64,000 nt of DNA from Candidatus Limnocylindrales bacterium (GTDB lineage Bacteria; Chloroflexota; Limnocylindria; Limnocylindrales; CSP1-4). A program made the position numbers and the translations under genes. The notes beneath the pieces were generated by a model. The model was given only the letters and a program-made list of their open reading frames with translations, was not told the DNA's origin and did no database searches. The first letter of the stretch is position 1; the number at the start of each line of letters is the position of its first letter. The stretch lies in contig JBBSFD010000001.1 in the NCBI GenBank assembly GCA_038239115.1, forward strand, positions 51,399-115,398, given 5' to 3'. This document shows, piece by piece, positions 1,235 to 48,477 of the stretch.

Positions 1235-1815
1235 GCCAGGTCCAGCCGGACGATGTCGCGGACGACGGTCGCCTGGCGTGACTCGACCTGGCGCATGACC
1301 CGGAAGCCGGCTCGCTCGAACGTCGACAGGGTGCCGGTGTAGAGCGTGGGCGGGGTGGGCTTGCCCTGCGATGTGTCGACCGGGTAGGCCTCGATCGCGG
1401 GTGCGCCGTGCTCCCGCGCGAAGCGCACCGCCGCGTCCAGGAGCTGACCAGCGACGCCCTGGTGCCGGGCACGGCGCGAGACCACGAAGCACAGGATCGC
1501 CCAGACGGGCACGTCGTCGAGGCGCGGTCGCACGCGCGATCGCTCGAGATGCTCGAACTCAGCGCGTGGGCCGACGCTCACCCAGCCCACGGCTCGTCCC
1601 TCCGGGTCGAGGGCGACCAGGCCGGGCGGGAGGGGCCCGCGCGCCTGGGCTTCGAGGCTCGCCCGGTCGACGGCCTTCTGCTCGGCGCGATCTGGATTGA
1701 ATCCGCTGCTCCGCCAGAACTGGCACCAGCACCAGGACGGATCGCCGCCCTCCTCGAAAAGGGAAGTGAGCGCCGTCCAGGTCTCGCCGGTCAGCGGCCG
1801 GATGTCCAGGTCCAT
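1231..1815 (-). CDS. GNAT family N-acetyltransferase
   Basis: ORF 1231..1902; start taken at MDLDIRPLTGETW; acetyl-CoA binding segment VSRRARHQGVAGQLLDAAVRFAREHG. Confidence 0.7.
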   Translation of the reverse strand: MDLDIRPLTGETWTALTSLFEEGGDPSWCWCQFWRSSGFNPDRAEQKAVDRASLEAQARGPLPPGLVALDPEGRAVGWVSVGPRAEFEHLERSRVRPRLDDVPVWAILCFVVSRRARHQGVAGQLLDAAVRFAREHGAPAIEAYPVDTSQGKPTPPTLYTGTLSTFERAGFRVMRQVESRQATVVRDIVRLDLA

Positions 1816-1909
1816 GCCCGAACGATAGCGGCGAGTGGGCCCGTACACTCCGGGCGTGAGCGCCCGCCCCGACGACCCAGCGCCGATCCTGCCGCCGGCC
1901 ACGATCGGG

Positions 1910-3037
1910 ATGATCGGCGGCGGCCAGCTTGGCCGGATGCTGGCGATGGCGGCCCGGGCGATGGGCTACCGGATCGCGATCATGGATCCGGATCCGGATT
2001 GTCCCTCGGCCGCGGTTGCCGACGAGGTCATCGTCGGCGCCTACGACGACGTTGCGGCGGCCGTCCGGCTGGCCGCGATCAGCGCGGTCGTGACCTACGA
2101 GCTGGAGCATGTTGCCGCGGCCGTGGGCCGGGCGGTGGCCGGCATCCGGCCACTGCGGCCGAGCCTGCGGGCGCTCGAGGTGACCCAGGATCGGCTGGCC
2201 GAGCGCCGCTTCCTCGAGGCAGCGGGTGCGGCCGTCGCCCCCTTTCGCGAGGTGCGGACACGGTCGGCGCTTGGCTCGGCGGCCACGGCGCTTGGCTTCC
2301 CGCTCCGCCTGAAGGCCGCGATCGGCGGCTACGACGGCCGGAGCCAGGTCCGGCTGGCCGGTCCGGACGACCTCGCGCCGGCGTGGTCCGCCCTCGAGCG
2401 CTCGGCGGCAGTCGCCGGCCTCCTGCTCGAGCGGGAGATCGACTTCGCCTGCGAGCTGTCGGTCGTCGTGGCCCGCGGCGTCGATGGGCGGGCCGTGCCC
2501 TTTCCGGCGGGCCGCAATCGCCACGACGCCGGGATCCTGTTCGAGACCCTCGTTCCGGCGCCGGCTCCGGTGACCGCCGACATCGCCCAGCGCGCCCAGG
2601 CCCTGGCGGTCGGGCTGGCCGATGCCCTCGAAGTGGTTGGCACCCTGACCGTCGAGCTGTTCCTGGTCGATGCCGGCTCGCTGATCGTCAACGAGCTCGC
2701 CCCTCGCGTCCACAACAGCGGTCACTGGACGATCGAAGGCGCCGCCACGAGCCAGTTCGAGCAGCACATCCGGGCGATCTGCGGCCTGCCCCTGGGCGAT
2801 CCTGCCGCCCATGGCGCGGCCGCGATGATCAACCTGCTGGGCAGCGGCGAGCGCCGCCCGGCCCAGCTCGCCGGCGTCGCGGATGCGCTTGACGATCCAG
2901 GCGCCCACCTCCATCTCTACGACAAGCTCCAGGTCTTCGAGCGCCGCAAGATGGGCCACCTGACCGTCCTGGCCGACACGCCTGAGGAGGCCCTCGAGCG
3001 AGCCGAGCGAGCTCGCGACCTGCTGAGCTGGGCATAG
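1910..3037 (+). CDS. purK: N5-carboxyaminoimidazole ribonucleotide synthase (PurK)
   Basis: ATP-grasp protein; MIGGGQLGRMLAMAA N-terminus, ELAPRVHNSGHWTIEGA motif; the start could instead be upstream at 1835. Confidence 0.85.
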   Translation: MIGGGQLGRMLAMAARAMGYRIAIMDPDPDCPSAAVADEVIVGAYDDVAAAVRLAAISAVVTYELEHVAAAVGRAVAGIRPLRPSLRALEVTQDRLAERRFLEAAGAAVAPFREVRTRSALGSAATALGFPLRLKAAIGGYDGRSQVRLAGPDDLAPAWSALERSAAVAGLLLEREIDFACELSVVVARGVDGRAVPFPAGRNRHDAGILFETLVPAPAPVTADIAQRAQALAVGLADALEVVGTLTVELFLVDAGSLIVNELAPRVHNSGHWTIEGAATSQFEQHIRAICGLPLGDPAAHGAAAMINLLGSGERRPAQLAGVADALDDPGAHLHLYDKLQVFERRKMGHLTVLADTPEEALERAERARDLLSWA

Positions 3038-3134
3038 TCCCCCGAACCACCGGCTAGGGCCCGGCTACCCGGTCGCTGGCTTCATCGGTCAGAATGGGCG
3101 GCACTCCCCACCAGCTTCCCAGGAGACCCTGCCG

Positions 3135-4613
3135 ATGCCTTCCGCCCCACACCGCGTGACCGTCATCCCGGGTGATGGCGTGGGGCCCGAGGTCGTGCGC
3201 TCAGCGGTCCGGGTGATCGAGGCCGCCGGCGTTCAGATTGACTGGGAAGAGGCGGCGGCCGGTGCCAGCGTGTTCGAGACGGGTGATACCTCGGGCGTTC
3301 CGGCCGAGACCCGCCACTCGATCGAACGGACCAAAGTCGTGCTCAAGGGACCGCTCGAGACGCCGGTCGGCTTCGGCGAGAAGAGCGCCAACGTGACCCT
3401 GCGCAAGCTGTTCGAGACGTACGCAAACGTCCGGCCGGCGCGCGAGCTGCCCGGGGTGCCCACCCGCTACGCCGGCGAAGGCGTGGACATGATCATCGTC
3501 CGCGAGAACGTCGAGGACCTCTACGCCGGGATCGAGCACATGGTCACGCCCGACGTGGGCCAGTGCCTCAAGGTGATCAGCCGGAAGGGCTCCGAGAAGG
3601 TCATCCGCTACGCCTTCGAGCTGGCCCGCCGCGAGGGCCGCCGGAAGGTCACCGCTGCGACCAAGGCCAATATCATGAAGATGACCGAGGGCCTGTTCAA
3701 GGCGGTCTTCGAGGAGCTGGCGCCCGAGTACCCGGAGATCGAGGCGCAGCACCTGATCATCGACAACGTCGCCCACCAGCTGGCCAAGGAGCCGGCCCAG
3801 TTCGACGTCGTGGTCACGACCAACCTGAACGGCGACATCATCAGCGACCTGGCCTCGGGCCTGGTTGGTGGGCTGGGCTTCGCCTCGTCAGGCAACTACG
3901 GCGACACGGTCGCGATCTTCGAGGCGGTCCACGGCTCGGCTCCGAAGTACGCCGGCAAGGACGTGATCAATCCCACCGCCTTGATCCTGAGCTCGGTCAT
4001 GATGCTCCGCCACCTGGGCGAGGCGGCCGCCGCCGACCGGGTCGAGGCCGCCGTCCTGGTCACCCTCGAGGAGGGCACGGCCACCACCCAGGACCTCGTC
4101 CGCCAGACCGGCGGCGATGTCGACACCGCGTCCTCGACGACCGGCTTCACCGACGCGGTCATCGGCAACCTGGGCCGCGGCCCGGCCACCCTCGCGGCTC
4201 GCCGGCCGGCGCCAGCCGCCTCGGTCCCGGCCAATCCGCCGACCTGGTCCTACGGCCCGGAGCGCTACGCCGCGATCGACCGCCGGACCGTTGGCCTGGA
4301 CGTCTTCATCGAGACCGACACGGACGCCGCCGAGCTCGGGCCGGAGCTCGAGGGGGTGGCCGCCGGCGGGCCGTTCGAGCTCCATTTCATCGAGAGCCGA
4401 GGGACGAAGGTCTACCCGTCGGTGGGCCTGTCATCTGACGGCGTCCGCCTGCTCCGAGCCCGCTTCCTGACCCGCGACGGCTCATCGGCGGCCGATCCGG
4501 CCCTCCTGGCCCTGCAGGCCGAGGTCGCCGCCCGGCAACCGGGCTGGACCCACATCGAGAAGCTCCACGTCTTCGACGGGGCCGACGGCTTCACCAAGGC
4601 CCAGGGCGAATAG
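3135..4613 (+). CDS. isocitrate/homoisocitrate dehydrogenase-like protein with a roughly 150-aa C-terminal extension of unknown function
   Basis: [31 protein letters not shown] and [19 protein letters not shown] motifs of the IDH/IMDH family; 492 aa against about 335 for the family; CAGGAGAC RBS before the ATG. Confidence 0.75.
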
Positions 4614-4617
4614 CCCG

Positions 4618-5121
4618 ATGGCCGAGAGCGGGCAGCCGGCCCTCCGGGTCGGGATCGTGGGCGGCAGCCGCTCCGACTTTCCGACCCTCGAGAAAGCGGC
4701 GGCGCTGCTGGCCGAGCTGGGCATCGGCCACGAGCTGCGGGTCGTCTCGGCCCACCGGACGCCCGATCTCCTGTATCGCTACGCCGAGGAGGCACCAGGC
4801 CGGGGGATCGCAGTGATCATCGCTGGGGCGGGTGGCGCCGCCCACCTGCCGGGCATGCTCGCCGCCAAGACGATCCTGCCGGTGATCGGCGTGCCGATTC
4901 CGACCCAGCACCTGGGCGGCCTCGACTCGCTCCTCTCGATCGTCCAAATGCCGCGCGGAATCCCGGTCGCGACCGTGGCCATCGGTAACGCCGAGAACGC
5001 GGCCATCCTGGCGGCCGAGATCCTGGCCTTGGCCGATCCGGCCGTGCGGGATCGGGTCGCCGCGCACCGGGCCGCCCAGACCCAGACCGTCCTCGACGAC
5101 GAGTCGAACCAGCCGCGCTAG
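4618..5121 (+). CDS. purE: N5-CAIR mutase (PurE)
   Basis: [14 protein letters not shown]...VISAHRTPD...[16 protein letters not shown] signature. Confidence 0.9.
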
Positions 5122-5132
5122 GGGTCCCGCGC

Positions 5133-5618
5133 ATGGATGACGAGCGCTGGGAACCGGGCATGCCGGTCCTTGACCGCCAGGCGGTCCCGAAACCGGCCGG
5201 GGCACCGGTGCCGGACGGCGGACCGGTGCCGGCGAAGCGCTCCCGTCCCGTTCCCGGCCCTCTCCCTCCGAGCCTGGCCGGGCTGCCGCCGCGGAGCGTC
5301 CCGGAGACCCAGCCCACCCGGCTCCAGCAGGAGTACGTCCTGCTGTCCGTGCCCGGCCTGATCGCCGGATTCGTGGCCATCACCGCCCTCGAGCTGGGGG
5401 CTCCCCTGGATAGCCCGTTGATCAAGCTGTGCGTGCTCATCGGGGCGCCCCTGCTGGCGATCGCCAACGCCGACGCGATCCTGCGGATCTGGCGAGCCGC
5501 CTGGGCCTGGATGCCGGTCGATCGGACCGGGGGCCTGTTCCGGCTCGCCTGGGTCGCCGTCGCGACGATCCTGTGGCTGCTGCTCATCGCGGTCGCCGTG
5601 TTCGTGCTCCTGGCATGA
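5133..5618 (+). CDS. hypothetical membrane protein with a proline-rich N-terminus and three predicted TM helices
   Basis: ORF with high third-position GC; hydrophobic C-terminal half; no recognisable family. Confidence 0.4.
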   Translation: MDDERWEPGMPVLDRQAVPKPAGAPVPDGGPVPAKRSRPVPGPLPPSLAGLPPRSVPETQPTRLQQEYVLLSVPGLIAGFVAITALELGAPLDSPLIKLCVLIGAPLLAIANADAILRIWRAAWAWMPVDRTGGLFRLAWVAVATILWLLLIAVAVFVLLA

Positions 5619-6268
5619 CCGACCACGACGCCCGGGCTGAGCTGGGCCATCTGCGCGGTCCCGACGGCCGCTCCACCGACATCCCCTCGGGCGGCGGCGT
5701 GCCGCCCTGGCTGGCCGCCTCGCTCAACAACTGCAGCCGCTGCGGGACGGCCCTCGCCTTCGGGGCGGTCGACGGCGAGCATCGTGATCGCCTGCTCTGT
5801 CCGGCCTGCGGCTGGATCGCCTACGTCAATCCGCGCCTGGTCGTGACCGCCCTGCCCCTGACCGAGACCGGCCAGGTGGTGCTCATCCGGCGCGGCATCG
5901 AGCCGGCCGTCGGGGCCTGGGCGCAGCCCGGCGGATTCCTCGAGATCGACGAGACGGTCAATGAAGGGGTGGTCCGCGAGACCTTCGAGGAGACCGGCCT
6001 GCTGATCGAGCCGGGTGAGGTGATCGGGCTCTATTCGCGCCTCGAGGCCGCGGTGGTCGTGCTCGTCTTCGAGGCCCGGATCGTCGGCGGTTCGTTCCGG
6101 CTGAGTCCCGAGGCCACCGAAATCGTGGCCTTCGAGCCGGACGCCATCCCCTGGCCCGAGATCGCGTTCAAGACCACCTACTGGGCCCTGAGCGACTGGC
6201 TCAGGCTGCGCCATCCCGACCTGCGACCAGGCGACGTGATCGGCGAACGCCGCCACTGGGAAGGCTGA
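5615..6268 (+). CDS. NUDIX hydrolase with an N-terminal zinc ribbon (NudC-like architecture)
   Basis: CSRCG...CPACG zinc-ribbon cysteine pairs followed by the Nudix box GGFLEIDETVNEGVVRETFEETGL; ATGA overlap with the upstream gene. Confidence 0.75.
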   Translation: MTDHDARAELGHLRGPDGRSTDIPSGGGVPPWLAASLNNCSRCGTALAFGAVDGEHRDRLLCPACGWIAYVNPRLVVTALPLTETGQVVLIRRGIEPAVGAWAQPGGFLEIDETVNEGVVRETFEETGLLIEPGEVIGLYSRLEAAVVVLVFEARIVGGSFRLSPEATEIVAFEPDAIPWPEIAFKTTYWALSDWLRLRHPDLRPGDVIGERRHWEG

Positions 6269-6279
6269 AGGCTGCGTCC

Positions 6280-7074
6280 GTGACGCCCTCGGTCGAGCTC
6301 GAGCTGCTCGACGAAGCCAACTTGGTCGTCTACCGGGATTCGACGATCCGATCCGGCGGCCGCGTCGTCGACCAGGACGGCCTCACCTTGATCATCGGGA
6401 CGCATCCATCGCCGGTCATCGTCAACACGATCCTGCGGACTGGACCGGTCAGCAATCCGGAGGAGGCGCTCGCCTCGGCTCGGGCGGTCTACTCCGCGAT
6501 CGGTCATGGGGTCAGCCTGATTGCCAGGGCGCACGCCGACATGGAGCTGGCCACGGCGGCCGCCAGGGCGGGCTGGAAACCCGTCTTCGAGCTGGTCGGG
6601 ATGATCCTCGACGCCCCTTGCCCGGTGAATGCCCTGCCGGCGGGCGTTTCGGTCTACGCCGCCGATGCCGTCGCCGACCTCGCAGCGATCCGGCGGGTCG
6701 AGGTCGAGGGCTTTGGCGAGTCCGAGGACGAGCGGGCGATGATCCGGACCGTCTTCGGGGATCCGCGCATGCTCGATTCGGCGGGCACGGCGACATACCT
6801 GGCCCGGGTGGATGACCCGGGAGGGGCGCAGGACGTGGCGGCGGCGATCGTCGACCGAGCACCGGCCGCCCTGATCACCTGGGTGGCGACGCTGCCGGAG
6901 TTCCGCCGACGCGGCCTGGGCGGCCTGGTCACGGCCGCCGCCGCGAACCGCGGCTTCGAGATGGGCTGTCCGGCTGTGGTCCTGCAGGCCTCACCCATGG
7001 GCCTGCCGGTCTATCGCCGGCTAGGCTTCCGGCCACTCGGCGGCTACACGATCTGGGATCCGCCCGAGGCCTGA
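6280..7074 (+). CDS. GNAT-fold acetyltransferase domain protein
   Basis: GTG start; C-terminal WVATLPEFRRRGLGGLVTAAAANRGFEMGCPAVVLQAS acetyltransferase fold. Confidence 0.6.
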   Translation: MTPSVELELLDEANLVVYRDSTIRSGGRVVDQDGLTLIIGTHPSPVIVNTILRTGPVSNPEEALASARAVYSAIGHGVSLIARAHADMELATAAARAGWKPVFELVGMILDAPCPVNALPAGVSVYAADAVADLAAIRRVEVEGFGESEDERAMIRTVFGDPRMLDSAGTATYLARVDDPGGAQDVAAAIVDRAPAALITWVATLPEFRRRGLGGLVTAAAANRGFEMGCPAVVLQASPMGLPVYRRLGFRPLGGYTIWDPPEA

Positions 7075-48401: not shown

Positions 48402-48477
48402 GGGGGAGTAGCTCAACGGTTAGAGCGGCGGGCTTATATCCCGCTGGTTCCAGGTTCGAATCCTGGCTCCCCTACCA
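48402..48477 (+). tRNA. tRNA with anticodon TAT (tRNA-Ile, AUA-decoding), CCA encoded
   Basis: Cloverleaf folded by hand: acceptor GGGGGAG/CTCCCCT (G1-U72 wobble), D-arm GCTC-AACGGTTA-GAGC, anticodon arm GCGGG-CTTATAT-CCCGC with T35A36T37 at 48435-48437, variable loop TGGTT, T-arm CCAGG-TTCGAAT-CCTGG, discriminator A, CCA. Confidence 0.75.

Follow-up and report, generated by a model that had tools for sequence, protein, structure and literature searches.

A subfamily IV (Thermus-type) isocitrate dehydrogenase, predicted to use NADP, is encoded between purK and purE in a Limnocylindria-type Chloroflexota

The gene icd, at 3135..4613 on the forward strand of the window (the whole 64-kb stretch of DNA that was analyzed), encodes an unremarkable isocitrate dehydrogenase (IDH) of a known class, and its architecture is already documented in Pfam, in NCBIfam, by a crystal structure, and in a subfamily described in the literature. 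We are highly confident that the product is a subfamily IV (Thermus-type), NADP-dependent IDH with an ancient and fixed C-terminal domain, and that the gene order in which it is found, purK-icd-purE, is fixed in its clade. The best-supported reading of the product is as the NADP-IDH of the TCA cycle, with both the activity and the preference for NADP predicted from the protein sequence. The locus can be annotated as icd (NADP-dependent isocitrate dehydrogenase, PRK09222 type). What had appeared to be an anomaly is standard for an IDH subfamily that is already known; the result matters mainly as a negative, and the locus needs no special follow-up.

The icd gene and its C-terminal extension

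The icd product has the two domains of a subfamily IV enzyme, in the expected order and at the expected length. The ORF begins with ATG and encodes 492 amino acids followed by a stop codon. A Shine-Dalgarno-like AGGAG (3122..3126, forward strand, read from the sequence) is located 8 nt before the ATG and supports the start at 3135, and we found the ORF to be real, as the earlier note had proposed. Residues 8-342 (3156..4160, forward strand) are the catalytic isocitrate/isopropylmalate dehydrogenase domain (PF00180, Iso_dh, E 4.3e-107), confirming the isocitrate dehydrogenase fold that had been recognized in the N-terminal part of the protein. Also as described there, the ORF runs approximately 150 residues beyond the catalytic domain in the same frame. 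The first part of this extension, residues 343-382 (4161..4280, forward strand), is a variable Pro/Ala-rich linker that is poorly conserved and gapped relative to the chain in PDB entry 2D1C. The remainder, residues 383-492 (4281..4610, forward strand), is the IDH C-terminal domain PF18324 ("Bacterial isocitrate dehydrogenase, C-terminal domain"), a ferredoxin-like beta-alpha-beta-beta-alpha-beta domain that is the 'second clasp' of subfamily IV. These residues cover positions 1-110 of the 110 in the Pfam model, with E 2.6e-19 in the whole protein and 6.8e-20 when residues 341-492 were scanned alone, so the claim that the tail has no similarity to anything recognizable does not hold. Both PF00180 and PF18324 scored above their gathering scores. 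The protein also passed the NADP-dependent IDH equivalog NF006673 (PRK09222; 552.5 bits versus a cut-off of 509), with residues 6-492 aligned to model positions 5-482 of 482. A protein of 492 amino acids with PF00180 followed by PF18324 fits the definition of subfamily IV, the members of which are 480-500 amino acids long (PMC3521221).

The closest known enzyme is the NADP-IDH of Thermus thermophilus HB8 (TTHA1535/TT0538, PDB 2D1C), a long type I homodimeric 'subfamily IV' enzyme with which the icd product aligns end to end. In a PDB sequence search, chain 2D1C_A (496 amino acids) was collinear with the icd product (query residues 7-492, chain residues 21-495, E 1.7e-175), and the last 152 residues alone matched 2D1C and no other PDB chain (E 3.5e-25). 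The two differ in source, which for the window is a high-GC, uncultured, Limnocylindria-type Chloroflexota; in the linker, which in the window is Pro/Ala-rich and of a different length and sequence; and in genomic context, in that purK-icd-purE was seen at none of the loci compared outside the clade.

The long IDHs of Alphaproteobacteria and Rickettsia (TIGR02924, ICDH_alpha) constitute the second subgroup of subfamily IV (PMC3521221) and have the same combination of PF00180 and a C-terminal extension. The icd product aligned with positions 2-473 of the 473 in the TIGR02924 model, but its score of 410.1 bits was below the equivalog cut-off of 561.35, and we therefore place it in the Thermus-like subgroup. 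Among enzymes without the tail, the nearest catalytic domains are those of the short (approximately 335 amino acids) NAD-IDHs and mitochondrial IDH3 (6LKY, 6M3S, and human IDH3 alpha; E 8.4e-98 to 2.8e-86). These enzymes lack PF18324 and their alignments stop at approximately residue 325-345. Their cofactor is NAD+, and those of mitochondria are hetero-oligomers.

The extension is an ancient and fixed domain fusion that is common to all orthologs in the group. Both domains were present in all of the best 120 matches among 5.8 billion clustered proteins, which answers in the affirmative the question of whether orthologs carry the same extension. The length was 482-497 amino acids in 119 of these 120, and the exception was a 418-amino-acid entry labelled partial by its source. 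Every one of the 82 complete orthologs that we collected from 80 genomes and related loci was 474-517 amino acids long, and none was near the 335 amino acids that the earlier note had expected if an assembly error explained the extension. In the ortholog alignment, mean column identity reached 0.99 in the catalytic domain, was 0.40-0.54 in the linker, the least conserved stretch, and was 0.53-0.77 in the C-terminal domain, the columns of which were essentially gap-free. Conserved residues of this domain include R441, invariant in one of the alignments, the RG pair at 422-423, and an FDG..GFT.AQG motif at the C-terminus. The suggestion of a fusion to an uncharacterized domain was thus right about the fusion and wrong about the domain, since PF18324 is present in 2D1C and defines subfamily IV.

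We considered the possibility that the extension is an artefact of a frameshift or of the assembly, or the result of read-through into a small gene that lies downstream and is separate from icd. Frameshift and read-through were assessed from the GC content by codon position in blocks along the ORF, from maps of stop codons in the other two forward frames, and from the lengths of the orthologs. Codon-position GC was continuous across the junction: GC at third positions (GC3) was 0.80-1.00 per block of 41 codons over the icd ORF and 0.85-0.98 in the four blocks of the extension. The reading frame that matched 2D1C was the same on either side of the linker, and an independent contig from a public run encoded an identical protein with the same neighbors. 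We found no support for an artefact; the low-complexity, poorly conserved linker may be why the junction aroused suspicion. Because the orthologs are all 474-517 amino acids long and GC3 remains within 0.85-0.98 along the whole tail, frameshift and read-through are excluded, and the probability that an artefact of any of these kinds produced the extension is negligible.

Active site and cofactor

The residues expected in the active site of an isocitrate dehydrogenase are all present in the icd product. We used MAFFT to align it with E. coli Icd (from NC_000913.3) and compared the same positions in the 82 orthologs. S113, N115, R119, R129, and R153 of the E. coli enzyme correspond to S84, N86, R90, R100, and R123 of the icd product, and Y160, K230, D283, D307, and D311 correspond to Y130, K177, D210, D234, and D238; all ten were invariant in the 82 orthologs. 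In E. coli IDH, these ten residues bind isocitrate or Mg2+ or take part in catalysis.

The sequence is also consistent with the use of NADP+. The NADP determinants K344, Y345, and R395 of the E. coli enzyme are K271, Y272, and R323 in the icd product, and the K-Y pair, which specifies NADP in E. coli IDH, was kept in 81 of the 82 orthologs. Two E. coli NADP-contact positions differ (Y391 is replaced by Q319, and R292' by E219), and because of these replacements it is uncertain how strongly the enzyme prefers one cofactor. The nearest solved relative, 2D1C, is a complex with NADP+ (PMC12667214). From the retained K, Y, and R and this NADP+-bound relative, we infer that the icd product is NADP+-dependent.

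It is highly improbable that the enzyme is a homoisocitrate, isopropylmalate, or tartrate dehydrogenase, or an NAD-dependent IDH, instead of an NADP-IDH. Such an assignment could be suggested by the catalytic domain, which among short enzymes is closest to NAD-IDHs and homoisocitrate dehydrogenases (E 8.4e-98 for 6LKY, 2.8e-86 for human IDH3 alpha, and 1.1e-77 for the Thermus homoisocitrate dehydrogenase). However, scores were below the equivalog cut-offs for NF040626 (316.5 bits versus 540), TIGR00169 (203.1 versus 353.2), TIGR00175 (352.8 versus 432.4), and TIGR02089 (218.3 versus 470.4), whereas NF006673 was passed, the K-Y pair is present, and the closest solved relative was crystallized with NADP+. 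Further equivalogs for homoisocitrate and isopropylmalate dehydrogenases were also below cut-off (NF040619, 268.5 versus 500; NF040855, 200.3 versus 680; NF002898, 246.2 versus 393). With homoisocitrate and isopropylmalate dehydrogenase models this far below their cut-offs, we drop the earlier label of a homoisocitrate dehydrogenase-like gene and retain the assignment as an NADP-IDH.

The C-terminal domain: structure, likely role, and occurrence outside IDHs

The domain has been described structurally in related enzymes. The T. thermophilus and Rickettsia enzymes form one clade, 'subfamily IV' (Vinekar et al., PMC3521221), of homodimers with a unique C-terminal region, the clasp-like C2 domain; without this tail, subfamily IV resembles subfamily III (PMC3521221). 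A 'novel terminal domain' is credited to Kumar et al. 2014 in the citation given by Wang et al. (PMC4360740). Our literature searches on PF18324 and on IDHs of Limnocylindria returned nothing further.

The predicted structure of the tail is a linker of approximately 40 residues and a ferredoxin-like domain with a fold identical to that of the Thermus enzyme. We used an AlphaFold2 model of the full-length protein solely for coverage of 2D1C, and a model of the domain alone for fold assignment. The full-length monomer (35 sequences) was of moderate quality, with a pLDDT of 67.7 and a TM score of 0.55 to 2D1C. In this model, the block-mean pLDDT of the C-terminal domain was 87-94 over residues 381-470, with a dip to 74-78 at 421-440, and linker residues 357-373 had pLDDT <50. 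The moderate confidence of the model fits a shallow alignment, a predicted obligate dimer, and a flexible linker. In a Foldseek search, the top match was 2d1c_A (E 2.4e-49, 497 columns), the sole full-length chain among the matches listed. The other matches listed to isocitrate, homoisocitrate, and isopropylmalate dehydrogenases covered approximately 350-425 columns, most of them approximately 350, and none reached the tail. When residues 375-492 were modelled alone from a diverse alignment of 32 sequences, as the earlier note had advised for the tail, AlphaFold gave a folded ferredoxin-like domain with a pLDDT of 93.4, a pTM of 0.87, and elements in the order beta-alpha-beta-(beta)-beta-alpha-beta.

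Based on the comparison with the Thermus enzyme, the most likely role of the C-terminal domain is structural, as a clasp at the dimer interface. Residues 8-342 adopt the beta-decarboxylating dehydrogenase fold and would convert isocitrate to 2-oxoglutarate, CO2, and NADPH, and the poorly conserved linker of approximately 40 residues connects this catalytic domain to the 110-residue PF18324 domain. In the T. thermophilus enzyme, the C-terminal domain lies over a reduced, two-strand clasp as a second, larger clasp-like module between the subunits. The corresponding domain of the icd product would complete and stabilize the dimer interface. By analogy with the description of 2D1C in PMC3521221, we infer a homodimer in which the C-terminal domains act as the second clasp. 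The literature that we searched contained no truncation, thermostability, or effector study of the domain, and the second-clasp role is for this reason drawn from structure.

A regulatory function would be an alternative to this passive clasp. The C-terminal domain might be a ligand-sensing module of the ACT or RAM type that tunes the activity of IDH allosterically, although we consider this unlikely. The Pfam scan gave no match of the domain to ACT or RAM families, and the structural comparison gave no fold match to them that was clearly above the ferredoxin-like background; ACT/RAM-type regulatory domains resemble the domain in fold class alone, with identities of 4-19%. What keeps a small probability for a binding or regulatory role is the occurrence of PF18324 outside of IDHs.

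PF18324 is not strictly confined to IDHs and is able to exist outside of an IDH dimer. An exhaustive phmmer search of 1.84 billion representatives, with residues 341-492 as the query, gave 185 matches at E up to 1e-3. We compared 145 domain matches with the full protein; 12 were full-length, and most of the short ones were fragments of full-length IDHs. Among the short matches, 57 include the tail of the catalytic domain, and many begin at internal Met or Val codons. One match was on a contig of only 581 nt (P0126). An apparent stand-alone domain gene (L087) was rejected as a contig-edge fragment in which the match extends back to residue 332, and the matches of five proteins with 6-13 matching stretches each (P0150, P0211, P0236, P0240, and P0248) were attributed to low complexity in the Pro/Ala linker.

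Two contexts outside of IDHs survived, and there were only these two (L085 and L086). In the first (ENA ERZ27247766 k141_5102328), a free-standing PF18324 gene (P0140, 3001-3327, forward strand) encodes 108 amino acids that match the Pfam model with E 3.3e-30. A divergent Rce1-like gene ends approximately 260 nt upstream, the spacer contains a promoter-like TTGACT-17 nt-TATTCT, and there was no remnant of an IDH catalytic domain anywhere on the locus. In the second (Logan SRR20718480_154625), a gene at 2728-3609 on the forward strand, downstream of an Asp-Al_Ex/TrkA_C transporter gene, encodes a protein of 293 amino acids (P0170) with DUF1206 (PF06724, residues 24-90) followed by PF18324 (residues 157-268), an architecture for which we found no description. 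A broader proposal would be that PF18324 is a portable ferredoxin-like module that binds an effector or a partner in IDH, and that icd-purE in Limnocylindria marks a link between IDH and the CO2 step of purine synthesis; we regard this combined proposal as quite unlikely. The residual value of the locus is in the domain itself, the biochemical role of which is described only structurally in the literature searched, and which on rare occasions is found alone or in another fusion.

The purK-icd-purE gene order and its surroundings

The placement of icd between purK and purE is real. The purK gene (N5-CAIR synthetase; 1835..3037, forward strand) was identified by NF004676 (405.5 bits versus 387), TIGR01161 (349.9 versus 318.4), PF22660, PF02222, and PF17769, and purE (class I N5-CAIR mutase; 4618..5121, forward strand) by TIGR01162 (209.7 versus 149.6) and PF00731. 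The earlier note had found this placement odd; it is the conserved order of the clade. With the GTG at 1835 as its start, purK shares 68 nt with a divergent acetyltransferase ORF. PurK domains are matched only from residue 22 onward, and the true start is for this reason probably downstream of 1835. The spacer between purK and icd is 97 nt, and only 4 nt separate the icd stop codon from the purE ATG, which makes co-transcription and translational coupling of these two genes probable. A scan of 1700-6400 found no consensus promoter or terminator, a result that is uninformative for a Chloroflexota genome with 70% GC.

The linkage of icd to purE and purK depended on the relatedness of the IDHs. 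The closest genomic relatives are metagenome-assembled genomes (MAGs) labelled Chloroflexota, Chloroflexia, or Candidatus Limnocylindrales. We scored purE as linked if it was within 300 nt downstream on the same strand, and purK if it was within 2.3 kb upstream; denominators are the loci with enough flanking sequence (at least 700 nt downstream for distant loci). At IDH identities of at least 85%, purE was downstream in 6/6 loci and purK was upstream in 6/6. At 69-84% identity, the counts were 26/33 for purE and 15/30 for purK, and at 68% or less they were 0/33 and 0/22. Among the loci at 68% identity or less, at least seven other phyla are represented, including Actinomycetota, Planctomycetota, Verrucomicrobiota, and Bacillota. 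Since other genes intervene between purK and icd in some relatives, we consider icd-purE to be the conserved core. A gene for a DUF1697 protein, for example, is located between purK and icd at L083 (79% IDH identity). At that locus, purK (2694-4421, forward strand) was called as a protein of 575 amino acids in which PurK is fused at its N-terminus to a GrpB domain (PF04229).

The simplest explanation of these patterns is that the order purK-icd-purE has been fixed by descent in Limnocylindria-type Chloroflexota. The order might instead reflect a functional coupling beyond inheritance, for example if CO2/bicarbonate and NADPH from IDH supported the carboxylation steps of PurK and PurE. This would be consistent with the gap of only 4 nt between icd and purE, and with the persistence of icd-purE adjacency down to approximately 69% IDH identity (32 of the 39 informative loci of the clade), even where purK has moved or genes have been inserted. 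It would also be consistent with a locus from a Terriglobia-labelled MAG (L065), which has purE 40 nt downstream of the same type of IDH. However, common descent by itself would be expected to conserve gene order within one class, the linkage was absent in 33/33 informative loci at 68% identity or less from at least seven other phyla, and it has been lost in some members of the clade (L019-L021, L027, L031, and L035). We know of no biochemical link between IDH and PurE. Taken together, we consider functional coupling improbable and retain descent as the explanation. The icd-purE linkage is usable as a synteny marker for the Limnocylindria clade.

Outside of the Chloroflexota clade, only two loci had purE beside an icd of the subfamily IV type. 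At the Terriglobia-labelled locus, purE is on the same strand as icd and its product is 61% identical to PurE of the window; at the other, from a Verrucomicrobiia MAG (L068), purE is upstream of icd and on the opposite strand. These could be due to independent linkage, gene transfer, or mis-binning.

The surroundings of icd have a purine or nucleoside flavor: a nucleoside hydrolase, purK, purE, and a NUDIX hydrolase, plus a GNAT acetyltransferase. Upstream and on the reverse strand are an inosine-uridine nucleoside hydrolase (152-1492; PF01156, E 4.1e-92) and the GNAT acetyltransferase (1231-1902), which is divergent from purK. After purE, on the forward strand, are a hypothetical protein of 161 amino acids with no Pfam match (5133-5618) and a Zn-ribbon NUDIX hydrolase (5615-6268), the start of which is overlapped by 4 nt by the ORF for the 161-amino-acid protein. 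This pair accompanies icd-purE in most of the clade relatives, with 42-80% identity for the hypothetical protein, and at the three loci L019-L021, where purE is missing, it is found directly after icd.

An Rfam scan of the window found nothing near the icd locus. In bacteria, AUA is mostly read by a lysidine-modified CAU tRNA, and a UAU tRNA-Ile is uncommon. The sole RNA gene in the 64 kb is a tRNA-Ile of this uncommon kind, with anticodon TAT (UAU), at 48402-48477 on the forward strand (ARAGORN; Rfam tRNA, 73.1 bits).
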